A DNA stretch of 64,000 bases from positions 91,165-155,164 of the forward strand of contig CALVCA010000001.1 in NCBI GenBank assembly GCA_944325895.1. The letters are read 5' to 3'. Position numbers and translations under genes: made by a program. The notes under the pieces are model-generated. The model ran no database searches and was not told the origin of the DNA. It saw nothing but the letters and a program-made list of their open reading frames with translations. This document shows positions 1 through 44,827 of this stretch, piece by piece (within the stretch, counting starts at the first letter, position 1; each line of letters starts with the position of its first letter). The DNA comes from Candidatus Gastranaerophilales bacterium (GTDB lineage: Bacteria > Cyanobacteriota > Vampirovibrionia > Gastranaerophilales > Gastranaerophilaceae).

Positions 1-160
1 TTATTATGTGTTTGTCAAAAATTTGCAGCAGATTATTTTTGGCACTTTCATCAGGATTGCTTTGTAATACGGCAATAGCTTGTTCTGCTTTTTTACGTTC
101 TTTTTGATTCAAACTTATTGCACTGAAATTTATTGAATTTTTAATTGGACTTATCAACAT
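1..160 (-). CDS. N-terminal 53 codons of a second mTERF-like paralog; the gene runs off the window start
   Basis: ATG at 158-160 (minus strand). The translation MLISPIKNSINFSAISLNQKERKKAEQAIAVLQSNPDESAKNNLLQIFDKHII parallels the N-terminus of the upstream 695-aa ORF. Nt 1-44 are identical to nt 2066-2109. It overlaps the stop of the upstream gene by 20 nt. Confidence 0.55.
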   Translation of the reverse strand, partial: MLISPIKNSINFSAISLNQKERKKAEQAIAVLQSNPDESAKNNLLQIFDKHII

Positions 161-2228
161 ATATTATTTGCTTTCCGAAATTTTCTTCACAAAAATCATG
201 TGTAAATTTTATCAATTCATCAGCTATATAGCCGTCATCAGGGATTTTAAAATTATAATTATAATCAGGATTGGAATTGATAAAACTTATTAAATTACTT
301 TTGCAATCATCGGGTTTTAATTTACTAAGTCTGATATTATTAGCTTTACTTATTAAAAGTCTGAGCATATCTAAATAAAAATATTCATCCTTGTTTTTAG
401 GGATATGCAAACTTTCAAAAGAAAATCCGCTTAACAATTTATAATATTTCTGCAAAGAATATTTATGATATACAGTTTCCGGTTTCATCTGCATAAAAAC
501 AGGTTCTCGCAATACTTTTTGTCTAATCTTGTCATCTTTAAACAGTTTTACAAGATTTTCAACATTATTAATTACTGTTTGAGGCTGCAGAGTTGCCACA
601 CTCGGCATTGCTAAAAGGATTTTAGCCATTTCTTCCTTTGTTTTCCCAAACCAATCTGCTAATTCCGTTACGTTATTTATAACCTTTTCAGGCTTTAAAA
701 CTAATATAGACGGGAACTTCACACCTGATTCAATATAATCTTCCTTTGATAAACTTAACGCATTTACAACAGTATCAATATTTGATTTAATACTTTCGAC
801 AGAACAAGAAACTAAATTAGGGCACTTTTTTAAAGCTTTTAAAATATTATTTCTCGGAGTGTTTAATTCTTTTGCCAATAAATCTATTTTAGCATCTATA
901 GTTTTTGAATTAAGAAGTAAAATATTAGTTGATTTTCTTAATAATTTAATTGTTTGCTCAGGGCTGATTTCAAGAATTTCTGAAATATGTTCTTTATTAT
1001 TTTTTATAGTTTCAATATCCCGAGCAAACAAAATAGGAGTAACCATAAAGACTTTGCCAATATTATTGGTTCCCAATATTTCGGAAAATGCTTTTGCTTT
1101 TTTCTCAACTAAATCGGGTGTAAAAGAAAATACTTCAGGAAACTTAACTCCCGCATTAATAAATTGTTCTCTTGTAATACCTAAAATTTCAGATGACGCA
1201 TCTGCATATTTAGAAAGATTTTCAGCGGATATCATAAACAACCTGGGAGCAACTAAAATACAACCTATATAATTTTTTAAAGGCAAATTCAATACTTTTG
1301 CACCGTTTTCAGCCCTATTGTATAAACAATCCGGAGTATATGTCAATATTGATGGATTTCTTTCAATCATAGAAATATATTTTTCTCTTGTAACGCCAAA
1401 CTTTTCAGCCCCTGTATCAATTTTATTTTCGATAACTTCAGGATTAATACAGATTAATCGGGGATTACTAAAAAAAAGTTTACTGTTATTTAATACTTTG
1501 GATGAGTTTTCAATATTATACTTAATTTTTTCAACCGGTAAAGATAAAAGCATTTGATTATGAATTAACAAATCAACTATAGCGTCAATATCCTTGTCAC
1601 GCCAAATTACATCCTGCAATTTTTTAGCCTTTACGTAATATTTTTCAGGCAAAACATTTTTTTCTTTTTGAATTTTTGCTATAGCGATTTTAGCTTGCTG
1701 CTGTTTTGTTTGATTATATTTATCATGAAAAGCCATATACCGCAATGCTTCATATTGACTTGAAGTTAAATTTACACTTACTTTATCAAGCTTATCTTTG
1801 TAATGCAAAACTTTTTCTTCATCAGGAGCAGATGCATACTGCGGCAGGTCATCTTCTGTTAATAATTTTAATTTATGCCCCGAAATTAAACATTCGTTTG
1901 AATATTTACTATGTACAATATTGGATTTAAAATCCGGCTTGTTTACAAATTCAATTATTCCGTCCAAAGTCATTTTTTGATCTATTGCGTCAAATAATGC
2001 AGTATAATACGCTTGAAGATAATCATCTTTTTGCGGAGAAAAAGAATATTTTAATTCAACTTCTTTTATTATGTGTTTGTCAAAAATTTGCAGCAGATTA
2101 TTTTTGGCAGCTTGAGAATCAGATGAATAAACCTTCTTTAAATTTTTATCGGCTTCAGTCTTTTCTTTATTATTCAAGCTTATTGAGGTAAAATTTACAG
2201 GAGTATAGTTTATATTTTTAAGAAACAT
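141..2228 (-). CDS. mTERF-like helical-repeat protein (695 aa), cytoplasmic, putative nucleic-acid binding
   Basis: Long ORF with at least eight consecutive 34-36-residue units, e.g. LGITREQFINAGVKFPEVFSFTPDLVEKKAKAFSEI and FGKTKEEMAKILLAMPSVATLQPQTVINNVENLVKL. These fit the mTERF motif pattern (LG-s-x-E-i-xx-ll-xxx-P-x-il-xx-s-x-e-x-l-xx-k-v-xx-l). No signal peptide. Confidence 0.7.
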   Translation of the reverse strand: MFLKNINYTPVNFTSISLNNKEKTEADKNLKKVYSSDSQAAKNNLLQIFDKHIIKEVELKYSFSPQKDDYLQAYYTALFDAIDQKMTLDGIIEFVNKPDFKSNIVHSKYSNECLISGHKLKLLTEDDLPQYASAPDEEKVLHYKDKLDKVSVNLTSSQYEALRYMAFHDKYNQTKQQQAKIAIAKIQKEKNVLPEKYYVKAKKLQDVIWRDKDIDAIVDLLIHNQMLLSLPVEKIKYNIENSSKVLNNSKLFFSNPRLICINPEVIENKIDTGAEKFGVTREKYISMIERNPSILTYTPDCLYNRAENGAKVLNLPLKNYIGCILVAPRLFMISAENLSKYADASSEILGITREQFINAGVKFPEVFSFTPDLVEKKAKAFSEILGTNNIGKVFMVTPILFARDIETIKNNKEHISEILEISPEQTIKLLRKSTNILLLNSKTIDAKIDLLAKELNTPRNNILKALKKCPNLVSCSVESIKSNIDTVVNALSLSKEDYIESGVKFPSILVLKPEKVINNVTELADWFGKTKEEMAKILLAMPSVATLQPQTVINNVENLVKLFKDDKIRQKVLREPVFMQMKPETVYHKYSLQKYYKLLSGFSFESLHIPKNKDEYFYLDMLRLLISKANNIRLSKLKPDDCKSNLISFINSNPDYNYNFKIPDDGYIADELIKFTHDFCEENFGKQIIYVDKSN

Positions 2229-2268: not shown

Positions 2269-4152
2269 TTAAACTTTTGTAACGAACTTTTCGTGTCTTT
2301 GCAAAAGCACCATCAAAACGGAAATATCAGCGGGTTTAACTCCGCCAATTCTTGACGCCTGTGCTAAATCCTTAGGTCTGATTTTAGACAATTTATCTTT
2401 AGTTTCTGTTGAAATATGTGTTATTTTTGAATAATCGATGTCTGACGGAAGTTTATATTTTTCAAGCTTTGCAGCCTGTTCGACCTGTAATTGCTGACGT
2501 TTTAAATAACCGTCGTATTTAATAAGAATTTCAGCCTGTTCATAAACATCACGAGGCAAAGAATCATCAGCTGCACCCAATTCTTTTAAAACTCCGTAAT
2601 TTATATTAGGACGTTTTAAAAGCTCGCTTAATCTTATTCCTCTGTCAATATGCTCGCCGTATTTTGAAAGTATTGAATTAACCCGCTCGTCAGAAGATAA
2701 TTTCGTTTGAGAAAGTCTTTCAAACTCTTTTTTAATAGCTTCTTGTTTATCAATAAATCTCTTATATTGAGCATCATCAATAAGTCCTAACTTATGTCCG
2801 AGTTCACAAAGCCTTGCATCGGCATTGTCTTGACGCAAAAGCAACCTGTATTCAGAACGTGACGTAAGCATTCTGTAAGGTTCATCAATATCTTTAGTAA
2901 CAAGATCGTCGATTAATGTTCCGATATAAGAATTACTACGTGATAATTCAAGCATATCTGAAGAATTCAGATAATTAACAGCATTAATACCTGCAACAAG
3001 CCCCTGGGCTGCAGCTTCTTCGTAACCGCTTGTTCCGTTTATCTGACCGCCTAAAAATAATCCTTTAATTTTTTTAGACATCAAAGAATGAGTTGTTTGA
3101 ACAGCCGGAACATAATCATATTCAACAGCATAAGCAGGTTTTATAACATGTGCATTTTCCAAACCCGGCAAAGTCCTCAGCATTTGAATTTGAACGTCAG
3201 CCGGAAGACTGCTTGAAAAGCCTTGAATATATACTTCATAAGTTCCAAGCCCTTCAGGTTCAATAAAAATATGATGCGACGGATTTTCAGAAAACCTCAC
3301 TATCTTGTCCTCTATTGACGGACAGTATCTCGGACCGGTACCATGAATTAAGCCTTGATACATAGGTGATTTATCAAGATTATTTTTTATTATTTCGTGA
3401 GTTTTTTCATTGGTACGTGTCAAATAACACGGATATTGTTTTCTAATCGGACGATCAGGTCTAAAAGAATAAAAATTTAAAACCTCATCTCCGGGTTGTA
3501 TTGTCATTTTGGAATAATCAATTGTACGTTTATCAACTCTCGGAGGAGTACCCGTTTTTAGTTTTTTTATTTCAATGCCGAGTTTCTGCAAACTGCCGCT
3601 TAAACCGATAGCGGCTTTTTCACCAAGTCTGCCGGCACTGTAGGATTTTAAGCCGACCCAAATTTTCCCTTCCAAAGATGTGCCGGTCGTCAATACAATT
3701 GCATTTGCCCTGTATTCAATTCCGAATTCATCGACCGCACCCGCAACTTTACCGTCTTTAGTCAAAACCTCTGTAATACAGCATTGTTTTAAATAAATAT
3801 TATCCGTATTTTCAATAATATTACGCATATATGCCATATACTCTTTTTTATCGGATTGAGCTCTCAGAGCTTGAACAGCAGGACCTTTGGAAGAATTAAG
3901 CATTTTCATTTGAATATAAGTTGCATCGGCAGCTTCTGCCATAACACCGCCCAAAGCGTCAATTTCTCTCACCAAAGTAGACTTTGCAGGACCTCCTATT
4001 GCAGGATTACAAGGCATTAATGCAATATTATCAACATTTAAAGTACATAATAAAACTTTACACCCCAATCTTGCCGCAGCTATTGCGGCTTCACATCCTG
4101 CATGTCCCGCTCCTACAACTATTATATCAAATTCATTCTTTAAATAACTCAT
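2269..4152 (-). CDS. mnmG: tRNA uridine 5-carboxymethylaminomethyl modification enzyme MnmG (GidA)
   Basis: FAD fold DIIVVGAGHAGCEAA, full-length GidA-like sequence, C-terminal GGVKPADISVL. The start was moved to MSYLKNEFD (ATG 4150-4152) inside the longer ORF. Confidence 0.94.
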   Translation of the reverse strand: MSYLKNEFDIIVVGAGHAGCEAAIAAARLGCKVLLCTLNVDNIALMPCNPAIGGPAKSTLVREIDALGGVMAEAADATYIQMKMLNSSKGPAVQALRAQSDKKEYMAYMRNIIENTDNIYLKQCCITEVLTKDGKVAGAVDEFGIEYRANAIVLTTGTSLEGKIWVGLKSYSAGRLGEKAAIGLSGSLQKLGIEIKKLKTGTPPRVDKRTIDYSKMTIQPGDEVLNFYSFRPDRPIRKQYPCYLTRTNEKTHEIIKNNLDKSPMYQGLIHGTGPRYCPSIEDKIVRFSENPSHHIFIEPEGLGTYEVYIQGFSSSLPADVQIQMLRTLPGLENAHVIKPAYAVEYDYVPAVQTTHSLMSKKIKGLFLGGQINGTSGYEEAAAQGLVAGINAVNYLNSSDMLELSRSNSYIGTLIDDLVTKDIDEPYRMLTSRSEYRLLLRQDNADARLCELGHKLGLIDDAQYKRFIDKQEAIKKEFERLSQTKLSSDERVNSILSKYGEHIDRGIRLSELLKRPNINYGVLKELGAADDSLPRDVYEQAEILIKYDGYLKRQQLQVEQAAKLEKYKLPSDIDYSKITHISTETKDKLSKIRPKDLAQASRIGGVKPADISVLMVLLQRHEKFVTKV

Positions 4153-4236
4153 AAACATATTATAATACAAAAAGCAAAACTTCATTAACTTGATTTATAA
4201 AAAAAATTATGAGATAATATGTTGGGAGGAGCAGAC

Positions 4237-14326: not shown

Positions 14327-14506
14327 TATTTCTTCACAAAGACGCAATATTTTTCAGAATATGACGTTAATGTATATATGAAGTATATTGACATGATGTG
14401 CTGATTAATCTTAAAGAAACGTAATAATGCGGGATTTTAAGACATGCTCTTGGTATAATAAGAAGTGTATGAACAGCAAACATTTACAAGAACTGAAAGG
14501 ACGAAT

Positions 14507-17500
14507 ATGAAACTTGATGTTAAACGGCAAAAAAGAGTAATTGCGTCATTGTTGACAACATTTTTCTTAATGCAGCAGTCAATGGTCGTACCGGCTATGG
14601 CAACAGAAATAGGCGGCGGAAACGGCGGCTGGGTTCAAGGCAACAACGGTGTATTTGACATTCACCCGACAGCAGTAAATGGAGATGTTGGTTTCAGACA
14701 ATATGAGAAGTTTAATTTAAGTAAAGGTGACATAGCAAACCTTCTATTCAATTATGGAAACAATATTGAAACATTCATAAACATGGTAGACAGCCAAATC
14801 AACATTAACGGTATATTAAATACCATAAAAGACGGCGGTATTGGCGGAAAAGCTGTTTTCATATCGCCTGAAGGTATGGTTGTCGGAGCAAGCGGTGTAT
14901 TAAACGTAGGTTCATTATCGGTAATGACACCGACACAAAAAGATTACGAAGCATTCAAAGCAGAACCGTATCCGGGGGCATTGTCAAGTATTGAGAACAG
15001 TCAGGGTACGGGAGTTGTCAGAATAGACGGCAAGGTATTTACGGAAGGCGGAGTTGATATATCAGCAGCAGCGATTTCCGTAGGAAATACCGGATCTATA
15101 ATGTCAGGGCTTAAAGATCTTACAAAAATCACATCAGAAGCACAAGCAAACAGATTATTCAATCAATTAGTAAATACAGATAACATAACATCAGGTTCTT
15201 CATTAACGAACGAGGATGGCAGAATAGTAATAAGAGCATACGGAGACACACCGGGACTATTACAGCCGACCCAACCGACAAATCCGGGCGGTTCGGTAGT
15301 GGTCAAACCGCGTCCAAGCAATTCACAAAGTACAGGAAGTCAATCATCGACAAATGTATTTGTAAGCAAGATTACAGGCGGCAGTGACAATACTGAAGGT
15401 GTAAACATTGCAGGTAACATCAAAAACTTCGGTACCGGCGACATTTCAATAGAAAATGAAGATGTTTCAGGTATCAAGCTGGCAAGTACCGGAAATATTT
15501 CCAATCAGGGAAGTATAACATTAACAAACTCCGGTGAAGACGGCATAGTAACCGAAGGGACAATTACAGGCGGCAAAGGCACACTTACGATAAACAACAC
15601 CGGTGAAGGCGGCATTGATATTGCAAGTTCAAGCAAACTTACAAATACCGGTGCAATTAATATTACAAACACCGGCAGCGACGGCATAAATATAAGCGGT
15701 GCCGTAAACGGCAAAGGCGGTGCTGTTTCTGTAAATAACAAAGGTACAAAAGGCATAACTATCGGTAACACCGGTAAAATATCAAACAGCGGAAATATAA
15801 CCGTTACAAATTCAGGTAAAAACGGAATTAATTTAGCCGGCAGAATAACAGGTTCAAACGGAACAGTAACATTAAACAACAGCGGAGCCGGCGGGTTAAA
15901 TGTAAGCGGCACTGTTTCAAACAGCGGTAATACAAAATTAACCAATACAGCAGGCGGATTATTTGTTTCAGGTACCGTATCAGGCAGCAACGGCAATATG
16001 CAATTGACTAACAGAGGCGGAAACGGAACAAATATCAGCGGCACAGTAACTAACAGCGGTGCAATTAATGTTAACAATACATCTGGCGGTATATACGTAT
16101 CAGGAAACGTTACTGGCAAAGGCGGTGACGTAACATTAACAAATTCCGGAACTTCCGGTATTGATATAGCAAAAGGCGGAATTGTTTCAAATACCGGCAA
16201 TATAAATATTTTAAACAGCGGTGCTAACGGCATAAATATAGACGGTACCGTAACTGGTAACTCAATCGGTAACTTAATAATTAGCGATTTGGAAGCCGGC
16301 GGTATACGTATCGGAAATCTTGGCAGAGTTTCTAATAAAGGACTTGTATCGCTTATCAACCAAGGTAACGGCGGAATAGACGTTGCAGGAAACGTTTCCA
16401 GCACTCAAGGTGTTGTCGGAGTAAATAATACCGGCAGTAACGGGATAAATATTTCCGGCAATATAAACGCTTCAGGTGTTGAAATGCAAAATACAGGTGC
16501 CGGCGGAATAAATATCCAGGGTCAAGTTTCAGGCAAAAACGTATCTGTTAACAACTCAAATTCAAATATAACATTAGGAAGTGCCGATACTGAAAACAAC
16601 ATTGTTTCAAACGGCGGTGACATTAATATTCAAATTACAAACGGCAGTCTGTTAAATGCAGGTTTTGACACAACACAACTTGCTGCAACAAACGGCGGTA
16701 ACCTTATTATTAACGTTAAAGACGGCACCATCGGTGAAGAAGTCGGCGGAGGATGCGTTGGCGGTGTATGTACCGGTGTTGATCCTAACTCAAGAGATTT
16801 AACAAAATCTATTAACGTAAATGTTTCAGGCAGCGTTACTGCTAATACAGAACAAGTTAATAATTCTAACGATTTAGTTATTAACATGGCTAGTATCGAT
16901 AATGATTTAAGAGTAAATCGTATCAGTGCTGACGGCAGAGTTATTCTTCTTGCCGATTCAAAAGACAGCGGTGCTAAACCTTTCTCTATTTTGAATGCTA
17001 ACAGCAACAATGATCAAGCTAATATTGAAGGCAAAGGTATTTCTTTAATAGCTAGCGGCAGTATCGGTGAAGAAAATAACCGTTTAACATTTGACCAAAC
17101 TGCAAACAGCAATGAATACGGTGTTGATCTCTTAGCTGATCAAGGAAGTATTTATTTGAAAGGATTCAGCGATAACCACGCTCAAACTAATGTTTGCACA
17201 ATTATATCTAGACACGGAAGCGTTGATTTGGAATTCTCCGGTAATGTCAACATCGAAGAAGTTACTGCTGCTAAAACAATCAAAATTGTTACTAGAGGCA
17301 AAGTATTAGAAATCCAAAATTTAGGTACAGCTCCTAATACTCCTGTTGACTACTTCGGTGAAAACAACAGTATAGCCCCTGAAAACGTTGAGTTGACTGC
17401 TTTGGACATCAATGATAACACAAGATTAGATCCTAACAGAGCTCAAAGTGAAGTAAGGGTTGTTAATGCTAGAGTTCAGGCGGACAATGATCCTAATACT

Positions 17501-19126
17501 CAGGAAATAACAATCATAGCTGATGATGTCTATATCGACGGTAAACATTTTATAAATGATGATGAAAATAAAGTTGTTATTAACGGCAAAGAATACATCC
17601 AATTCACAGTAGAAGATGATGACAGTACAAACCCTGTCAACAGCACGGATGATAACGAAGTTACGGTCGGTACAAGACCGGTAAGACCGGAAGATGTATT
17701 AGAAATCGATCGTGATGAAGACGAAAGAAATTACTATTACGAAGACGAATTACCATTAGACAACGACAGCGATGCTGACGCCGATGCAGATGCAGACGCT
17801 GACGCAGACGCCGATGCCGACGCTGATGCCGACGCAGACGCTGATGCTGATGCTGACGCAGACGCCGATGCAGATGCAGATGCTGACGCTGATGCAGACG
17901 CAGATGCCGATGCAGATGCCGATGCAGATGCCGACGCTGATGCCGATGCAGATGCTGACGCCGATGCTGATGCTGATGCAGATGCTGACGCTGACGCCGA
18001 TGCTGACGCTGACGCTGACGCAGACGCTGATGCTGATGCCGACGCAGATGCTGATGCAGACGCAGACGCCGATGCTGACGCTGATGCTGATGCAGATGCT
18101 GACGCCGATGCAGATGCTGATGCTGATGCTGACGCTGACGCAGATGCTGATGCTGATGCAGACGCAGACGCAGATGCTGACGCTGACGCCGATGCAGACG
18201 CCGACGCAGACGCAGACGCCGACGCTGATGCAGATGCTGATGCAGATGCCGACGCTGATGCAGATGCCGACGCTGACGCAGACGCTGACGCAGATGCTGA
18301 TGCAGATGCTGACGCTGATGCTGACGCAGATGCAGACGCAGATGCCGACGCTGACGCAGACGCAGACGCCGATGCTGACGCCGACGCAGATGCTGACGCT
18401 GATGCTGACGCTGACGCAGACGCTGACGCAGATGCTGATGCAGATGCCGACGCAGACGCCGATGCTGACGCCGACGCCGATGCTGACGCTGATGCTGACG
18501 CTGACGCAGACGCTGACGCAGATGCTGATGCAGATGCTGATGCCGATGCAGACGCAGACGCCGACGCAGATGCCGACGCTGACGCTGACGCAGACGCTGA
18601 CGCTGACGCAGATGCTGATGCTGACGCTGATGCAGATGCTGACGCAGATGCTGATGCTGATGCTGACGCTGATGCTGATGCAGACGCTGACGCTGATGCA
18701 GATGCCGACGCTGACTCTGATGATGATGCGGAATATGAAGATGATTTAGGCAAACAAACTTATATACAACGTAAGCTTCTTGACGAAAACATTCCGTCAA
18801 TAGATAAACGTCAGTATATGAGGTTCGAGGTTGCCGGCAACAGAAACCCTGTTGAATTACAGCAGAATACTCAAATGGATTCATTATTAGACATCTCAAG
18901 AGGCGGTATAGCTGTTAAACACCATAATCAATTGAAAGTCGGCGATGTTGTTCCGGTACAAATTACATACGGTGATTTAAATATTAATGCAGATGTAAAA
19001 GTTGTAACCGCAACAGATGTCCGGGCAGGTGCAGAATTTGTTAACCTCGACAGGGCAACCGCAAACAAACTTCTCTATATGAACATACTGTTAGAAGAAG
19101 CGAACGGTACAATATCAATGAGATAA
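14507..19126 (+). CDS. Two-partner-secretion (TpsA/filamentous-haemagglutinin-like) exoprotein with beta-helix repeats, a (Asp-Ala)157 tract and a C-terminal PilZ domain
   Basis: SD AAAGGA before ATG 14507. Extended signal peptide ending VPAMA. TPS domain ([19 protein letters not shown]...INGILNT...[27 protein letters not shown]). G/N/T/S-rich repeats. DA tract 17771-18712. PilZ motifs RQYMR and DISRGG. Confidence 0.85.
15430..16560 (+). repeat. In-frame degenerate ~19-21-codon repeats encoding parallel beta-helix-type units
   Basis: Reiterated TNSG-x-x-GINI-x-G-x-VTG-x-x-G-x-VTLNN units, e.g. [27 protein letters not shown] and [17 protein letters not shown]. Confidence 0.7.
17771..18712 (+). 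repeat. 942-nt period-6 tract (GAY GCN)157 encoding uninterrupted Asp-Ala dipeptides
   Basis: Read directly and in frame with the TpsA ORF. Third codon positions vary between units. One 90-nt tandem duplication: 18361-18450 vs 18451-18540, 88/90 identical. Confidence 0.95.
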
Positions 19127-21959: not shown

Positions 21960-22128
21960 TTTATTTGACTTTTTGTTTTGTTTAGTTTAATATTATATTT
22001 GCAGCCGCAGACAATTAGCGGAAGTCAATCTTCCTTAATAAGCCAGCTAATCGAGGTTACATGTAGTCGAAGTGTAAGATTTTGCGGTTGTGTTGCAAAA
22101 TCTTTTTTTATTAGTAAAGGAGCGAAAA
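21960..22128 (+). promoter_or_regulatory. Probable ribosomal protein L10 leader with attenuator terminator (22076-22109)
   Basis: A relatively GC-rich untranslated leader lies directly upstream of rplJ. Hairpin AAGATTTTGC / GCAAAATCTT plus a T-run sits immediately before the rplJ SD. This matches the known L10(L12)4 autoregulatory leader arrangement. Confidence 0.45.
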
Positions 22129-23472: not shown

Positions 23473-24098
23473 TAACCGCAAAGCTTTTTGTATTCACAAA
23501 ATCTGCAGGCTTCACAATTTTGAATAAATCTTTTGGCATTTACGATTTCGGTAATTATCCTGATTAATTCTGTTTTGTAGATGGCTTCTAGATTTTTATC
23601 AAAACCGATTTTATATTGACTTTGATTTTTTAAGTCAATATAAACAAAAGATAAATCATTTGTTTTCAAAAAATCTGATAAACATAAAAGATATACCATT
23701 GTTTGAAAATCTTTTTCGGGATTTTTTGGAACTGAACCTGTTTTGTAATCTAAAATATAATAAGAAACAGCATCTTTTACAACTGCATCCAAACGACCGC
23801 CGATCCAAAAATCAGATATCTTGCAAGAAAGGTTGTATTCTGAGTTTACAAAAGTTTTATTGAAATATTCATTTGATTTTAATACATTCCAAACAGATAA
23901 TTCTTCAGGTTTTAAAACTTTTTCCATCTTCTCTACATCAAAACCTTTAAGATAATAGTTTGCAAGTGCATGGATTTTTTTCCCTTTTTCGAACAGTGTT
24001 AATTTTTGCGGCACGGAAACTTTTTGAATATATTTATATTCAAATTTTTTAGGGCATTCAACATATACTTTTAACATATTTGGTGAATATATTGTCAT
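23469..24098 (-). CDS. Cas4/AddB-type PD-(D/E)XK nuclease with a 4Fe-4S cluster motif (209 aa)
   Basis: N-terminal SPNMLKVYVECPKKFEYKY. Catalytic GGRLDAVV and ILDYKTG (D...DxK). C-terminal CRFCEYKKLC (CX2CX5C), which together with the N-terminal Cys gives the Fe-S staple. 4-nt ATGA overlap with the upstream helicase gene. Confidence 0.85.
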   Translation of the reverse strand: MTIYSPNMLKVYVECPKKFEYKYIQKVSVPQKLTLFEKGKKIHALANYYLKGFDVEKMEKVLKPEELSVWNVLKSNEYFNKTFVNSEYNLSCKISDFWIGGRLDAVVKDAVSYYILDYKTGSVPKNPEKDFQTMVYLLCLSDFLKTNDLSFVYIDLKNQSQYKIGFDKNLEAIYKTELIRIITEIVNAKRFIQNCEACRFCEYKKLCGY

Positions 24099-27000
24099 AA
24101 AGCCTCCGTAAAAATAATACTTGGTTCTTGCTCAACGATTTTGCCAAACGAGGTGATTTTTCTGCTTGCGGTTATATATAAATTCCTTTTAGCCCTTGTG
24201 ATGGCTACGTATAACAATCTGAAATTTTCTGCTAAGATGTCTTGTTTCAACAAATTTTCCGTTTTAGGTTTATAATTAGGATTTGAACGTCTTACATTTT
24301 CCGTAAAATCAGATGATTTCAATTTCACTTCGTTAAAATCAAGCGTTAGATTTTTTTCGGACATCTCCGGTAAAAATACTGCATCAAACTCATCACCTTT
24401 TGATTTATGTAAAGTCATTATTTGAACTTTGCCCTGCAAAAATTCACGGCTGCTCTCCTCTTCTTCAGAGAAAAATTTAAATCCGCTCAAAGACGGTTTT
24501 TTAGCCAATTCGCCCAACCTTGTAACCACATATGATAAATCTTTATTTACAGTACTCAAACGTTTTACAAGGGTTGATATAAGATATACATTTGATTTTT
24601 CAATTTCACTGTTAAAATACGTAAGCCCGATTTTTATAACCAATTCTTCCGGCTGCAAATACGGCATCGAAAGCCAATAATTTACATCCCAATAAAATTG
24701 CACCAGGCTTTGTTCTGAAAATTCATCAATATCTGACGTTATAAACGGTATCTTAAAATTTCTTATCTCTGTACCCAAACGCTGTTTATAAATACCGAAT
24801 TCCGCCAATATTTCATAATTATCCGCCAAAACATTATTATCAAACGGGTTTAAAATAATATTTAGTACTGCAAAAATTACCTTAAAAATCGTTTTCTGCT
24901 CAAGACTCTCGCTCCTGGTGATACTTTTTAAACCGCTGTCATTTATAAAGCTCAGCCAACGTGAAACCTGATAATTATTTCTCAAAAGAATGCCTACTGT
25001 AGATTTGGGATTTTTTTTAAATATGTTTTGTATTGTTTTTAGAACATAATTTTTTTCTTCCAATGCATTATTAAATATCTCAAATTTAACCGCATTATCC
25101 TGAACAGGATTTTTACCTTCTACGGGCTGCATATAAATTTTATAAAATGCGTTTTGTGTTTCAGGTTTTGTATCTGCAAAATTAATCAAATGATTTGCAA
25201 GTGTCCAAACATCTTTTGTACATCTCTGCGAACAATTCATGGTTATGTCATTGTTAGAAGTTATAAATTTTCTAAATCCTTCTACATCAGCATTCGAAAA
25301 AGTCGTTGTTATTGCTTGATTTATATCTCCGCAGCGTATTAAATTTTTATGTTTGCCGCTCAACAGTTTTATCAATTCCTGCTGGATTGAAGAAGAATCT
25401 TGTGCTTCGTCCTCAATTATATATTCGCAAATATTTTGATAATGTTCCAAAATATCAAAATTGTTCCGCAATAATTTTACGGAAGAAATCAGCATATCAT
25501 CATAATCTATCAAATTTTGCAGAGCTAAAGATTTTTGATATTCATTAAAAAATTCTGCAAATTTCATGATTTTTTTATCGGTTATATTATCTTCAAAAAG
25601 TCCCTCACCAAGCTTGAATATTGAAACAGCTTTGTCAAATTCCTCAGTTTCAGTTTTTTTCAGCTTCAATTGTTCTGATATAGTTTGAATAATACGCATT
25701 CGCTGAGTATCATCACAAATTTCAAAATCAGGATTTAAATTTAAACGTTCAAAATTCCCGTTTTCTTTCAAAATTCTTAAAGCCAAACCATGAATTGTAC
25801 TAATATTCGGCAATTGAGAAGAATTCTGTCTGATATTTTTTATTCGTTCACGGAAATTTCTTGCAGCTGATTCCATATATGTCAAAACAAAAATATTTTC
25901 CGCCTTGACTCCGTTATCAAGCAGCTTCAAAATTAAAGCCAGTAATATTGTAGTTTTACCGGCACCCGGTACTGCTGAAATCGCCATTGTGCCGTTTGTA
26001 TATTCTAATACAGGTTTTTGATCTGACCTCGGAATAATAGGTGAAGCCTGAGTTGAAACCGCTTCCGCCTCAAAATTCAAATATTTTTCTATCCCGCCGA
26101 AATTTTCTGCTCCGTTACCGTCAAATAAACTTGAAAACGCAAAAACATGCTTATTTACGCACAATAAAAGCTTTCTGAGTATTCTCGCCGTTTTATCCCT
26201 GCTTAATGCTATATTATCTTCTATAGTATAAGAATCCTTTTCCCAGTCTTTTTGAAATACCCACGCATTATACAATGGTCCCGTATCACTTTTTATCCAC
26301 TCATCACTCGATATATCAAGCCATATCTGATATTGACTTTTTATTTGATTATCTATTATTTTTTGAGGTGTTGCTATTATAATTTCACGTTCACCTGTCT
26401 CCAAAGTTGAATACGGATTATCCGAAATTATTGAATTTTCTATCTGAACTATAATGTCATTCTTCCTGTCATTAAAATCCGAAATATTCTCAAATTCTCT
26501 AAGCTGCTTTACGAAAAAATTAAATCTGCTGAGTTCTTTTATATCTTTTACCTTTATAATTGAATTATATATTTCACAAACCTGCTCGGACATCTTAATA
26601 TCAGAATTTGCAAGATTATCAATTAAATCAAGCAGGATATTATATCTTTCATTAAAATTTTCATCCCCGAAATCAAACACAGGTAATTTCCCTGTTTCCG
26701 AAAATGTTTGCAAAATATTTTGACAATATTTTACAGGGATTTCTAAAAATTCACTCAAAAGTACTCTTATTTCAAATTCAGTAACCGGCAATTCAGTATT
26801 AAGCTTCAAAACAGTCAATGCCGCTTGAACAAACTTATTTTGTATTAACTTTTCGCTGCCTGAAATAAATGTCAAATCAACATTCAAATTTTCTTTTAAA
26901 GAAAATTTCAACATATCATCTATTATCGGAGTTATAATTGCTATATCATGCGGTAATACATTATTTTTCAAAAGCTCATTTATTTTCTGCACTGCCAAAT

Positions 27001-27919
27001 CAATCATCTGTGCCCGTTTTGAAGGTGATTTAACCGTGAAATTTTTCAATTTATCAGTTTTATCGTTAATAATATTACCGAATAAAATTTCCGCATCCTC
27101 CGCTAATCCGCCAATCATATCAATCGGAACAGCAGTTTCTTTAAATAAATTCTGTAATTCGGCAAAAGAATTTTTATCGGCACTCAAATACCCTGCCCTG
27201 CTTCCGCCTTTGCTATCTGCTGCAATATAGCATGACTTTATCTGAGGTGCTAAATACTTTATAAAATCCAAACAAACAGGAGTAATTTCATCAGCATCAT
27301 CTAATATTAAATATTTTATGTCCGAAAAATATTCAGTATTTTTATATATAAAATTAAACAAAAGCGTTTGTCGTAAATAATCAAAATCTCTATATTCAAG
27401 CGTTTTGGCAAGCAGTTTTTTCAAAGCGGAACGTGCATCGTCCGCAAATGTTTCTCCTAAAATTTGCGAACGCTCTTCTATCTCTTTATCTGATAAATTA
27501 TTTTGCACAATGAGAGAATAACGACGAAATAATTGGTTTAACAAAGATTTCTTTGAATTATATCCCTTAAATTTAACATCCTTTAATATGTCTTTCAAAA
27601 TAAATTGTGAAATTTCAAGTCCCGCCAAATTAGGTACAATGACAGTGTTTTCATATGGATTTCTGCTTTCTAAAAAAGCCCAGTTGTCAATAACTGTGTT
27701 ATATACCAATGATGAAAACGAATACACACAAAGCTTTTCAATTGAGGTTATAGTTAATTTTTTTAAAACGTTTTCAATAAACTGATTACGCAAATTGGAA
27801 TTCTGCACCAAAACCAGTATTTCAGAAGCTTTTATACCTGAATTTACCAGCTCAGCGTATTTATTTATTAAAATATTAGTCTTGTCGGAATTAATTGCAC
27901 CGTCAATTATCAAAAGCAA
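24095..27919 (-). CDS. Fused double UvrD/AddA-like superfamily-1 helicase (degenerate N-terminal module plus intact C-terminal module), 1274 aa
   Basis: The N-terminal half has a degenerate Walker A (GAINSDKT) and motif II (LILDDADE). The C-terminal half has intact PGAGKTT, IIEDEAQD, CGDINQAI, TLHKSKGDEFDAVFL and LLYVAITRAKRNLYI. No nuclease domain in this polypeptide. Confidence 0.85.
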   Translation of the reverse strand: MLLIIDGAINSDKTNILINKYAELVNSGIKASEILVLVQNSNLRNQFIENVLKKLTITSIEKLCVYSFSSLVYNTVIDNWAFLESRNPYENTVIVPNLAGLEISQFILKDILKDVKFKGYNSKKSLLNQLFRRYSLIVQNNLSDKEIEERSQILGETFADDARSALKKLLAKTLEYRDFDYLRQTLLFNFIYKNTEYFSDIKYLILDDADEITPVCLDFIKYLAPQIKSCYIAADSKGGSRAGYLSADKNSFAELQNLFKETAVPIDMIGGLAEDAEILFGNIINDKTDKLKNFTVKSPSKRAQMIDLAVQKINELLKNNVLPHDIAIITPIIDDMLKFSLKENLNVDLTFISGSEKLIQNKFVQAALTVLKLNTELPVTEFEIRVLLSEFLEIPVKYCQNILQTFSETGKLPVFDFGDENFNERYNILLDLIDNLANSDIKMSEQVCEIYNSIIKVKDIKELSRFNFFVKQLREFENISDFNDRKNDIIVQIENSIISDNPYSTLETGEREIIIATPQKIIDNQIKSQYQIWLDISSDEWIKSDTGPLYNAWVFQKDWEKDSYTIEDNIALSRDKTARILRKLLLCVNKHVFAFSSLFDGNGAENFGGIEKYLNFEAEAVSTQASPIIPRSDQKPVLEYTNGTMAISAVPGAGKTTILLALILKLLDNGVKAENIFVLTYMESAARNFRERIKNIRQNSSQLPNISTIHGLALRILKENGNFERLNLNPDFEICDDTQRMRIIQTISEQLKLKKTETEEFDKAVSIFKLGEGLFEDNITDKKIMKFAEFFNEYQKSLALQNLIDYDDMLISSVKLLRNNFDILEHYQNICEYIIEDEAQDSSSIQQELIKLLSGKHKNLIRCGDINQAITTTFSNADVEGFRKFITSNNDITMNCSQRCTKDVWTLANHLINFADTKPETQNAFYKIYMQPVEGKNPVQDNAVKFEIFNNALEEKNYVLKTIQNIFKKNPKSTVGILLRNNYQVSRWLSFINDSGLKSITRSESLEQKTIFKVIFAVLNIILNPFDNNVLADNYEILAEFGIYKQRLGTEIRNFKIPFITSDIDEFSEQSLVQFYWDVNYWLSMPYLQPEELVIKIGLTYFNSEIEKSNVYLISTLVKRLSTVNKDLSYVVTRLGELAKKPSLSGFKFFSEEEESSREFLQGKVQIMTLHKSKGDEFDAVFLPEMSEKNLTLDFNEVKLKSSDFTENVRRSNPNYKPKTENLLKQDILAENFRLLYVAITRAKRNLYITASRKITSFGKIVEQEPSIIFTEAL

Positions 27920-44754: not shown

Positions 44755-44827
44755 GCGCTTGTAGCTCAGCAGGTAGAGCACTCCCCTTTTAAGGGATAGG
44801 TCGCGCGTTCGAATCGCGCCAAGCGCA
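44755..44827 (+). tRNA. tRNA-Lys (anticodon UUU)
   Basis: Manual cloverleaf: acceptor GCGCTTG/CAAGCGC; D arm GCTC-AGCAGGTA-GAGC; anticodon arm CTCCC-CTTTTAA-GGGAT with one C:U mismatch at 27:43; T arm GCGCG-TTCGAAT-CGCGC; discriminator A. No encoded CCA. Confidence 0.92.

Follow-up and report, generated by a model that had tools for sequence, protein, structure and literature searches.

Organization of the locus

The window analysed here comprises 64,000 nucleotides of a contig assigned to Candidatus Gastranaerophilales bacterium (CALVCA010000001.1, assembly GCA_944325895.1). At its start an ORF with an ATG start codon (141..2228, minus strand), here named gene 1, encodes the 695-aa protein A1, which we describe below as a sigma-like/mTERF fusion protein. 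The same ORF is a called gene in the ENA contig ERZ28613403 scaffold_517. The 5' end of gene 2 (protein A2) was recognized by translation at 1..160 on the same strand and continues beyond the window edge; the gene was called in the source contig (L001, 12069-14159), where it encodes 696 aa. As already described in the initial annotation of the window for a second paralog starting at nt 160 on the minus strand, both genes overlap by 20 nt (141..160, minus strand), the ATG of gene 2 being located 20 nt before the stop codon of gene 1. Upstream of gene 1, on the same strand and separated by a gap of 40 nt, mnmG (gidA) is located (2269..4185), identified by Pfam GIDA domains on the called gene.

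In the source contig three tandem paralogs (A1, A2 and A3) were found, each overlapping the next by 20 nt. The tandem paralogy proposed initially therefore stands, whereas the number of two paralogs has to be raised to three. The 20-nt overlap recurred at both gene junctions of L001 as well as of L002 and of the Gastranaerophilales metagenome-assembled genome (MAG) L003; these overlaps probably reflect translational coupling of the array genes in an operon-like arrangement.

On its bacterial contig the array is flanked by mnmG and rpsU. Among genomes, the Candidatus Gastranaerophilales MAG L003 was closest to this locus; it carried the same three-gene array with the same overlaps and with proteins of 43-55% identity. 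There, mnmG was located next to the array as well, and the ORF upstream of the array was 86% identical to mnmG. In a search for related loci with narrower alignments L003 was the single genome locus returned, and the metagenome scan re-found L005 alone. The host of the array is a Candidatus Gastranaerophilales-like bacterium, a gut inhabitant with a relationship to the cyanobacteria.

Based on a dN/dS of about 0.36 for A1 and A2, both genes of the window locus are considered to be functional. The codon usage of the window gene is AT-rich and matches that of the host contig. A promoter scan was uninformative (46 sites found, 45.6 expected), and the window contained no canonical sigma factor that could serve as an internal comparator. 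The assumption of one long frameshifted gene was rejected since head, array and tail were each complete in every ORF. Likewise, an origin from mobile elements or defence systems was rejected, as no PADLOC defence-system model, no plasmid match and no meaningful viral structure match was obtained.

Evidence for gene conversion between gene 1 and gene 2

A repeat search confirmed the exact repeat of 44 nt that had been noticed initially (1-44 and 2066-2109, 100% identical), and its length is far beyond chance. In the source contig this patch turned out to be the visible end of a longer tract, over which A1 and A2 are identical for 261 nt (gene nt 120-380). The A1 copy is located at 1849..2109 on the minus strand (aa 41-127); the first 44 nt of the A2 copy lie inside the window (1..44, minus strand). 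Window and source contig differed at two positions within the tract, nt 2043 and 2053. The divergence of the flanking sequence that was described together with the repeat applies to the 5' side of the genes alone, whereas in the source contig the identity extends beyond the window edge to 261 nt.

Between A1 and A2, dS was 0.03 in aa 41-150; the repeats gave 0.62 and aa 1-40 gave 0.94. Since the synonymous sites are identical too (dS 0.03 versus 0.62), this indicates gene conversion. The initial annotation had left the choice between gene conversion and strong constraint; on the same grounds the latter was rejected as the cause of the identical patch. Segmental gene conversion is thus illustrated by the three-gene array in a clear natural case, in which the putative RNA polymerase (RNAP)-facing part of A1 and A2 is kept identical while the putative recognition parts diverge.

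The mTERF repeat array

An array of 11 three-helix mTERF units of about 36 aa each, arranged as a solenoid, occupies aa 214-600 of A1 (429..1589, minus strand). It was defined by a unit HMM, an AlphaFold (AF2) model with helices at pLDDT 96-98, Foldseek and Pfam mTERF. With Pfam PF02536, A1 scored 68.3 bits at a gathering score of 23.1 (E=7e-19), in agreement with the mTERF identity that had been assigned by eye; the paralogs A2 and A3 reached 59.3 and 29.4 bits, respectively. The unit HMM, seeded from the three example units of the initial annotation (aa 349-384, 455-490 and 491-526) and iterated on A1, detected 10 units starting at aa 223, 251, 277, 313, 349, 388, 419, 455, 491 and 528, and in the AlphaFold model 11 three-helix units were visible over aa 214-600. 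The earlier count of at least eight units between aa ~255 and ~590 was correct and conservative.

The consensus of 471 units from 71 family members, [GN]-I-S-K-E-E-F-I-K-A-A-L-K-x-P-x-L-F-x-x-K-P-E-T-I-x-K-N-[IV], corresponds to the one previously deduced by eye. The proline was present in 88% of these units, with L/I and F/L at +2 and +3, and Lys/Arg was conserved at unit positions 9, 13, 21 and 27-28, an indirect hint of DNA or RNA binding. The net charge of the repeat region amounted to only +7 to +11, which counts against the functional proposal made below.

The AF2 model of A1 was confident (pLDDT 92.3); a single-sequence AlphaFold prediction (pLDDT 39) was unusable. When the PDB was searched with the model using Foldseek, all ten significant matches were MTERF1, MTERF3 or mS93 (probability 1.00, E down to 1.5e-5, TM normalized to the target 0.43-0.60), so that the structure comparison also points to mTERF proteins alone. 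The best matches were MTERF1-DNA complexes (3mvb, E=1.5e-5, probability 1.0), and MTERF4 was found just below the significant set. HEAT, PUF or TPR structures were absent from the Foldseek PDB matches, and these solenoid classes were rejected for A1. The repeats of A1 are therefore an mTERF-type helical-repeat solenoid encoded on a bacterial chromosome.

On the sequence level, the family profile matched the PDB entries of mS93 (4e-9), MTERF3 (8e-9) and MTERF1 (2e-5), and with the A1 sequence alone the eukaryotic PDB mTERFs reached 1e-6 or weaker. mS93 and MTERF3 are ribosome- or RNA-associated proteins and not DNA-binding; as the closest solved relatives by sequence they count against a DNA-binding reading.

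The sigma factor-like N-terminal module

The region preceding the repeats is composed of four parts, all on the minus strand. A conserved N-terminal peptide with the motif M-x-I...F-x-[AS]-I-x-L (2172..2228, aa 1-19) is predicted to be disordered (pLDDT <50 for aa 1-13), and its residues F13, I16 and L18 were invariant or nearly so in 27 members. It is followed by a four-helix part resembling sigma region 2 (1920..2171, aa 20-103) with helices at aa 20-36, 39-60, 67-83 and 88-103 and pLDDT values of mostly 80-97, which holds a D-x-x-Q...Y-x-x-x-F motif aligned to sigma-E region 2.2. A flexible linker (1821..1919, aa 104-136, pLDDT 23-54) with the motif T-E-D-D-L-P-x-Y-x-S, which was conserved in the alignment, leads to a degenerate part resembling sigma region 4 (1608..1820, aa 137-207).

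In this last part the first helix of the helix-turn-helix (HTH) is missing, corresponding to a 10-residue deletion relative to the family N-module HMM. According to the alignment with this HMM, the deletion was present in A1, A2, C1 and C2 and absent from A3 and C3. The pattern deleted, deleted, intact is thus common to the arrays of the window and of MAG L003. In most family members the HTH was intact.

TIGR02937 (sigma70-ECF) matched 18 of 24 N-modules (best E=1.9e-9), and the matches were collinear, ranging from model position 5, 17, 26 or 33 to 163-164. The consensus of 71 N-modules scored 45.8 bits (aligned over positions 4-164 of 165) at a curated cutoff of 42.9; this synthetic consensus alone exceeded the cutoff, whereas the individual members reached 22-35 bits. 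Taken on its own, A3 stayed below the cutoff as well (21.1 bits), and A1 and A2 on their own gave no match to sigma profiles. Additionally, the consensus matched TIGR02985 (5e-9, aligned 5-160 of 162) and, above the gathering scores, Pfam Sigma70_r4 (32.5 versus 24.1 bits), Sigma70_r4_2 and GerE, three models that are also matched by the members with an intact HTH. Pfam Sigma70_r2 was matched neither by any member nor by the consensus, although matches with E up to 10 were admitted, region 2 being covered within the TIGR02937 and TIGR02985 alignments only.

Gene 3 (A3) matched the PHROG 'RNA polymerase sigma factor' over aa 29-207, the only notable PHROG match. The N-module profile aligned to residues 305-410 of Thermus sigma-A (5e-4) and, using hhalign, to residues 46-184 of verified E. 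coli sigma-E at E=4e-4 and a probability of only 34%. In the Foldseek search with the A1 model, sigma factors appeared at E=3-7 only. Canonical sigmas recognize the -10 element by aromatic and basic residues of region 2.3/2.4, and such residues were not evident in the sigma-E hhalign alignment.

Judged by these profile comparisons, the N-terminal ~210 aa of the family probably form a divergent sigma-70/ECF-like module, in which a four-helix bundle of the sigma-2 kind appears to be connected by a flexible linker to an HTH of the sigma-4/LuxR type. In the initial annotation the N-terminal element was seen as no more than a conserved patch; it is part of this module, which alters the functional reading.

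The C-terminal module and the extent of the family

The C-terminal end of A1 (144..428, minus strand, aa 601-695) forms a conserved, family-specific alpha/beta module of about 95 aa with the motif F-x-I-P ... G-K-x-I, which was present in 78 of 151 representatives. Neither a PDB sequence relative nor a Pfam match was found for it.

Relatives were gathered by an exhaustive HMMER search that yielded 464 matches; the best 150 of these 464 were examined and all were metagenomic proteins. A word-indexed protein search with the single sequence or the family profile returned just 2-3 near-identical proteins, its index being saturated by the AT-rich composition of low complexity, and the exhaustive search was therefore needed. 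The head was present in 73, the tail in 78 and both in 66 of the 151 representatives. At least 66 clusters (50% identity) combine the sigma-like head with 2-12 mTERF units and the conserved ~95-aa tail, and the length of the family proteins (397-884 aa) follows the number of units. Pfam mTERF was matched by 18 of 27 family members (best E=2.8e-23). Among the members of ten sampled clusters no name was found in any source; the homologs are thus not already annotated there, a possibility that had been raised initially.

One family member lies beside a gal operon in divergent orientation, as is typical of local regulators; other members had unrelated neighbour genes. No anti-sigma gene was found beside any family member examined. 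Some bacterial genes encoding mTERF repeats only adjoin ankyrin-repeat genes, and one such gene (L011) adjoins an RsmB/F-type methyltransferase gene.

mTERF proteins are textbook organelle factors, with a nucleic-acid-binding fold known mainly from mitochondria and chloroplasts. According to a preprint on plant mTERFs, prokaryotes lack them (10.1101/2022.01.18.476766), and the initial annotation regarded them as essentially uncharacterised in bacteria. The latter view is out of date: pTERF proteins, the first mTERF-like proteins reported for prokaryotes, were described in 2024 (PMC11417379), and a bacterial mTERF protein alone is therefore not new. Our literature search revealed no description of a fusion of a sigma-like head with mTERF repeats and no paper coupling ECF sigma factors with mTERF. 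The proteins described here form a populous, unnamed bacterial family in which a putatively sigma-derived module and canonical mTERF repeats are covalently linked in one protein.

Putative function of the array proteins

The array proteins consist of an N-terminal peptide, a sigma-70/ECF-type module, an mTERF array and a C-terminal cap; genes 1 and 2 lack the first HTH helix and gene 3 carries it. On inspection of the A1 sequence no N-terminal hydrophobic stretch was seen, consistent with the earlier statement that a signal peptide is absent. We tentatively propose, with a confidence slightly below even, that these proteins are cytoplasmic sequence-specific transcription factors in which the mTERF solenoid reads nucleic acid and the sigma-derived head provides the coupling to RNA polymerase. 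The solenoid would read an extended sequence, most likely of double-stranded DNA as in human MTERF1 and pTERF1/2, with unit number and sequence setting the specificity and length of the target. The head would link target recognition to RNA polymerase, either by docking to the core enzyme via the retained region-2.2-like helix or, added in gene 3, by a -35-type DNA contact. Because their repeats have diverged, the paralogs are proposed to bind different targets; since gene conversion kept genes 1 and 2 identical in the sigma-2-like part, the paralogs may share an RNAP-facing surface. The fusion thereby offers a testable hypothesis for bacterial mTERF arrays, namely that they act on transcription via RNA polymerase. 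It may also define a novel class of sigma-type regulators, the DNA specificity of which might be deduced from a repeat code or re-engineered through it, and it bears on the evolutionary origin of the mTERF fold with evidence from a lineage adjacent to the plastid ancestor.

A more far-reaching version of this proposal, which we regard as doubtful, would see the proteins as programmable sigma factors. The head would dock on bacterial RNAP, and the mTERF array, with units varying freely in number and sequence among the paralogs, would take over or extend the recognition of promoters or terminators. The family, presumably abundant in Vampirovibrionia, a non-photosynthetic lineage that is sister to the cyanobacteria, could then point to bacteria as the source of the mTERF fold and of its functional link to the polymerase. 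If true, the link of mTERFs to bacterial-type polymerases, still shown by plant mTERFs with the plastid-encoded polymerase, would be of bacterial origin.

It is unlikely that the proteins are genuine alternative ECF-type sigma factors in which the head performs all promoter recognition and array and cap form a regulatory extension without nucleic-acid binding. In favour of this, the family consensus matches the sigma70-ECF model end to end, and no adjacent anti-sigma gene was found in the members examined, as is usual for ECF groups that are controlled by a C-terminal extension. The extension could be autoinhibitory, partner-binding or sensing, as in ECF41 (SnoaL-like), ECF42 (TPR) and ECF56, and with ECF42 there is a precedent for a helical-repeat extension. 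However, genes 1 and 2 are under purifying selection without the HTH helix, the loss of which means that they could hardly read a -35 element. Furthermore, the variation from 2 to 12 units and their fast divergence between paralogs resemble a recognition code rather than a fixed regulatory domain, and the documented activity of the mTERF/pTERF fold is nucleic-acid binding. The proteins could also be roadblock or termination factors in the style of MTERF1, with a solenoid that clamps a specific DNA site and blocks or pauses RNAP and a head that serves only as an additional HTH or for oligomerisation, without docking on RNAP in the manner of a sigma. The intact HTH scores equally with LuxR/GerE-type and sigma-4 models, the best structural match was MTERF1 in complex with its termination sequence, and the plastid polymerase, which is of bacterial type, is terminated or paused by plant mTERFs (PMC6085346). 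Nevertheless, the sigma70-ECF matches run through region 2 and thus beyond the HTH, and the identity of the sigma-2-like segment by gene conversion would be left unexplained, which makes this explanation distinctly improbable.

Quite unlikely, too, is a role as RNA-binding factors associated with ribosome, rRNA or tRNA, comparable to MTERF3, MTERF4-NSUN4 and mS93, the head being a relic or a protein-interaction module. The sequence relationship to mS93 and MTERF3 agrees with such a role, and so do the position of the array between mnmG, a tRNA modification gene, and rpsU, the mnmG adjacency kept in MAG L003 and the methyltransferase gene beside the mTERF-only gene in L011. On the other hand, the module fused to the repeats belongs to a type that targets DNA and RNAP, other family members have unrelated neighbours, and the best structural matches are complexes of MTERF1 with DNA. 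Finally, the predominantly eukaryotic occurrence of the mTERF fold (10.1101/2022.01.18.476766) and the ankyrin-repeat genes beside some bacterial mTERF-only genes might suggest a secreted effector acquired by horizontal transfer out of a eukaryotic host. This is hardly credible for a protein without a visible signal peptide that is fused to a bacterial sigma-type module: about half of the best 150 of 464 matches, all metagenomic, carried the sigma-like head, all contexts checked were bacterial, and the eukaryotic PDB mTERFs were only weakly similar to A1. Moreover, the AT-rich codon usage fits the host contig, and in the chromosome the array has been conserved under purifying selection.

Comparison with known systems

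With the eukaryotic mTERF proteins (PF02536; human MTERF1-4, plant mTERFs and mS93) the array proteins share the three-helix unit of ~30-36 aa, the conserved proline, the hydrophobic positions and the solenoid. In contrast to these, they are encoded on a bacterial chromosome by overlapping tandem paralogs, have no organelle targeting, consist of strictly tandem and more regular units, and carry a sigma-like head as well as a novel C-terminal cap. A1 accordingly lies outside the classical definition of mTERFs as nuclear-encoded, organelle-targeted proteins.

The pTERFs are prokaryotic mTERF-like tandem-repeat proteins that bind DNA sequence-specifically (Kd ~2 nM) with motifs differing between arrays, and the variation of their units was proposed to set DNA specificity (PMC11417379, NAR 2024). 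They were reported mostly from Bacillota, and pTERF1 (MBQ3414883.1) is said to lack the canonical mTERF proline and hydrophobic signature (PMC11417379). Compared by description, both groups are prokaryotic, are known from MAGs only and have mTERF-like tandem units of ~35 aa in variable number (3-11 in pTERF, 2-12 in the sigma-like/mTERF family). The present family keeps the proline in most units and is thereby set apart from pTERF1 as described. Additionally, no sigma-like or HTH domain is mentioned for pTERF in PMC11417379.

ECF sigma factors with C-terminal extensions resemble the array proteins in the sigma-2/sigma-4 core without region 3, the large C-terminal domain and the lack of an adjacent anti-sigma gene. 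Here, however, the head is far more divergent, with single proteins below the cutoff and Pfam region 2 undetected, a conserved linker motif and an N-terminal peptide are present, and two of the three paralogs lack the HTH helix. The extension has a repeat fold of the nucleic-acid-binding kind. Among the LuxR/GerE-type regulators (RcsB, DesR and GerE) the similarity concerns the intact HTH of the family, which scores as high on GerE as on sigma-4; this likeness covers only about 50 residues, whereas the sigma models align over about 165 residues including the region-2-like bundle.

Structural composition of the array

The ORF at 141–2228 on the minus strand encodes a protein of 695 aa (here named A1). 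As described in the initial annotation, a second ORF (A2) starts at nt 160 on the same strand, 20 nt within the end of the first, and continues beyond the window edge. The tandem arrangement was confirmed but not the number of two copies, since the 22 kb locus of the source contig carried three paralogs of 695 (A1), 696 (A2) and 716 aa (A3). Each downstream start codon was located 20 nt upstream of the preceding stop codon. These overlaps suggest translational coupling, so that the three paralogs would be co-produced. The array lies downstream of mnmG, with which it shares the strand, and on its other side rpsU faces it in convergent orientation. The A1 protein was recorded in a single ENA contig (ERZ28613403 scaffold_517, 77.5 kb), and a second sample contained this three-gene set too.

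The sole relative among the GTDB species representatives was a Candidatus Gastranaerophilales bacterium MAG (43% identity). It contained three genes as well (here named C1, C2 and C3), with 20 nt overlaps and placed after an mnmG that was 86% identical to that of the window. This assigns the host to the Vampirovibrionia (Melainabacteria) as a Gastranaerophilales-like member. The overlapping three-gene array is conserved. Overlapping tandem family members were found again in a further locus (L007, 167–3408).

Identity of the repeats

Three repeat units pointed out initially (aa 349–384, 455–490 and 491–526 of A1) were used as seed of a unit HMM, which was iterated on the A1 protein. In total, ten units were detected, starting at aa 223, 251, 277, 313, 349, 388, 419, 455, 491 and 528 with a spacing of mostly ~36 residues, where at least eight had been claimed. 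A1 reached 68.3 bits against Pfam mTERF (PF02536; gathering score 23.1, E=7e-19), and A2 and A3 were likewise above the gathering score. The A1 protein matched mitoribosomal mS93 at 1.4e-6, and the family profile matched the PDB sequences of mS93 (4e-9), MTERF3 (8e-9) and MTERF1 (2e-5).

The AlphaFold model of A1, built from an 85-sequence alignment (mean pLDDT 92.3, pTM 0.74), contained eleven three-helix units across aa 214–600. All ten significant Foldseek matches in the PDB were mTERF proteins with a probability of 1.00, namely MTERF1-DNA complexes (best E=1.5e-5), MTERF3 and mS93; MTERF4 complexes ranked just beneath. HEAT, PUF or TPR structures were absent from the PDB matches to this model. 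The consensus over 471 units carried the hallmark proline in 88% and kept the hydrophobic positions. The mTERF assignment, originally made by eye, is supported.

Family and domain organization

An exhaustive HMMER search gave 464 representatives at E≤1e-3, 165 of them at E≤1e-10. Among the best 151 of the 464, an N-module of ~230 aa was present in 73, a conserved C-module of ~95 aa in 78 and both together in 66. Family length ranged from 397 to 884 aa and tracked the unit number (2 to 12). The family is thus modular with a variable number of repeats. Its C-terminal alpha/beta module had no relative in Pfam or PDB, and no name was found in any source for the ten family clusters looked up. All family members begin with a conserved peptide of ~19 residues (A1 aa 1–19, window 2172–2228), predicted to be disordered by AlphaFold, in which F13, I16 and L18 are invariant or nearly so. 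A T-E-x-x-L-P-x-Y-x-S motif is conserved in the disordered linker between the sigma-2- and sigma-4-like segments. Some long members (P0010, P0099, P0007 and P0092) look like fusions of adjacent paralogs: either a C-module lies in the middle of the chain and further repeats and another C-module come after it, or a second sigma-4-like segment is present inside the protein.

The N-module resembles sigma factors. Pfam Sigma70_r4_2 matched A3 at aa 161–203 (E=7e-5), and in PHROGs A3 aa 29–207 corresponded to 'RNA polymerase sigma factor'. Of 24 N-modules, 18 were matched by the NCBIfam superfamily model TIGR02937 (sigma70-ECF), the best at E=1.9e-9. Several of these alignments were collinear and spanned regions 2 through 4 (model positions 5–164, 5–163, 17–163, 26–164 and 33–164). 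Individual N-modules scored 22–35 bits, all below the curated cutoff of 42.9, and the consensus of 71 N-modules scored 45.8 bits (E=4.8e-12, aligned 4–164 of 165). This consensus could also be aligned from end to end of TIGR02985, an ECF subfamily model (E=5e-9), and matched Sigma70_r4, Sigma70_r4_2 and GerE above their Pfam gathering scores. The N-module profile matched Thermus sigma-A residues 305–410 as well as LuxR-type HTHs; hhalign against E. coli sigma-E (sequence checked against 1or7) covered residues 46–184 with E=4e-4 and a probability of only 34%. Pfam Sigma70_r2 matched neither family members nor the N-module consensus, and in Foldseek, sigma factors appeared only at E=3–7. A sigma-4/LuxR-type HTH is established in the family, and a two-domain sigma-70/ECF-type head is likely.

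A1 and A2 on their own gave no sigma match, because a 10-residue deletion, shared with C1 and C2 in the module-HMM alignment, removes the first HTH helix. The HTH is intact in the third gene of both arrays (A3 and C3). A1 carries a degenerate form of the head, which the otherwise supported initial interpretation had missed.

Gene conversion between A1 and A2

The exact 44 nt repeat (1–44 and 2066–2109) is real. In the source contig the shared run comprises 261 nt (gene nt 120–380), of which only 44 nt of the A2 copy fall within the window. Between A1 and A2, dS was 0.94 for aa 1–40, 0.03 for aa 41–150 and 0.62 for the repeats (aa 216–600). Gene conversion or constraint had been proposed; since the synonymous sites are identical too, we attribute the tract to recombination and not to constraint on the protein. 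The conversion covers the sigma-2-like segment. Outside the tract dN/dS was ~0.36, and both genes are under purifying selection. A1 and A2 were 70% identical. Their identity to C1 or C2 was only 39–45%, and C1 shared 35% with C2; A3 and C3 shared 55%. Judged from these identities, the orthology pattern also fits concerted evolution.

Over 12,228 nt compared, only two bases of the window, 2043 and 2053, deviated from the ENA source contig, both within the A1 copy of the tract; one changes Ser59 to Leu. Strain polymorphism could account for them, or else an effect of assembling a repeated segment.

Remaining window

The remainder is an ordinary diderm chromosome with genes for a HydABC-type hydrogenase, a MiaB-like enzyme, ClpB, UvrD and SNF2 helicases and a ShlB-type transporter. 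A 1553-aa ORF (14465–19126, plus strand), with a C-terminal PilZ (c-di-GMP-binding) domain as its only Pfam match, lies within the only GC-rich stretch (0.41–0.49 versus ~0.33). A UvrD-like helicase at 24095–27919 (minus strand) has an N-terminal extension of ~630 aa without Pfam match. Rfam identified a ribosomal protein L10 leader (21987–22117) and one tRNA (44755–44827), both on the plus strand, and no further known RNA family in the window.

Putative function

The mTERF solenoid would recognize an extended nucleic-acid sequence. Double-stranded DNA is the favoured target, because MTERF1-DNA complexes gave the best structural matches, the head fused to the repeats belongs to a type directed at DNA and RNAP, and prokaryotic mTERF-like arrays bind DNA at nanomolar affinity with array-dependent motifs (PMC11417379). 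An RNA- or ribosome-associated factor, like MTERF3, MTERF4 or mS93, is rather improbable beside this. So, to a slightly greater degree, is a roadblock of the MTERF1 type, which would share the DNA target.

The sigma-like head may couple sequence recognition to RNA polymerase. Region 2.2 is the principal core-binding determinant of sigma factors, and a retained helix containing D-x-x-Q aligns with it (hhalign to sigma-E, 34% probability). A true ECF sigma factor with the mTERF array as regulatory extension is unlikely, though the least so of the alternatives; the consensus aligns with ECF models. An effector of eukaryotic origin we regard as very improbable. Coupling of recognition to polymerase is the reading we prefer.

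A 612-aa sigma-like/mTERF member (L012, 4960–11839), found on contigs up to 366 kb, is divergent from a galM-galK-galE-galT (Leloir) operon, a placement typical of a local regulator.

Comparison with known mTERF proteins

According to a plant mTERF preprint, the family does not occur in prokaryotes (10.1101/2022.01.18.476766). The first prokaryotic mTERF-like proteins, 'pTERF', were reported in 2024. These derive from MAGs, mostly of Bacillota, and carry 3–11 units; pTERF1 binds ACTNNNAGTC with a Kd of 1.9 nM (PMC11417379). A bacterial mTERF-like protein is therefore no longer new in itself, and the initial interpretation is in this part overtaken.

mTERF-only genes were found as well. Two in tandem are flanked by ankyrin-repeat genes (L008, 2876–10200), and one, on a contig of 55% GC, has a MobA/MobL relaxase and an AbiE toxin-antitoxin pair as neighbours (L009, 3357–10216), so that mTERF-fold proteins occur in several unrelated bacterial settings. 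A 466-aa mTERF-only protein with faint HTH matches (L011, 932–3990) is divergent from an RsmB/F-type m5C RNA methyltransferase, a pairing which recalls the human MTERF4-NSUN4 complex.

Our literature search found no coupling of mTERF with ECF sigma factors or Melainabacteria. The novelty lies in a sizeable unannotated family whose members fuse a sigma-70/ECF-like head to a canonical array of mTERF repeats and a novel tail, and whose genes at the window locus form a conserved array of three with segmental gene conversion. A sigma-like or HTH domain, as present in this family, is not mentioned for pTERF (PMC11417379). Compared by description, pTERF1 is without the canonical proline and hydrophobic signature, whereas the sigma-like/mTERF family keeps it.
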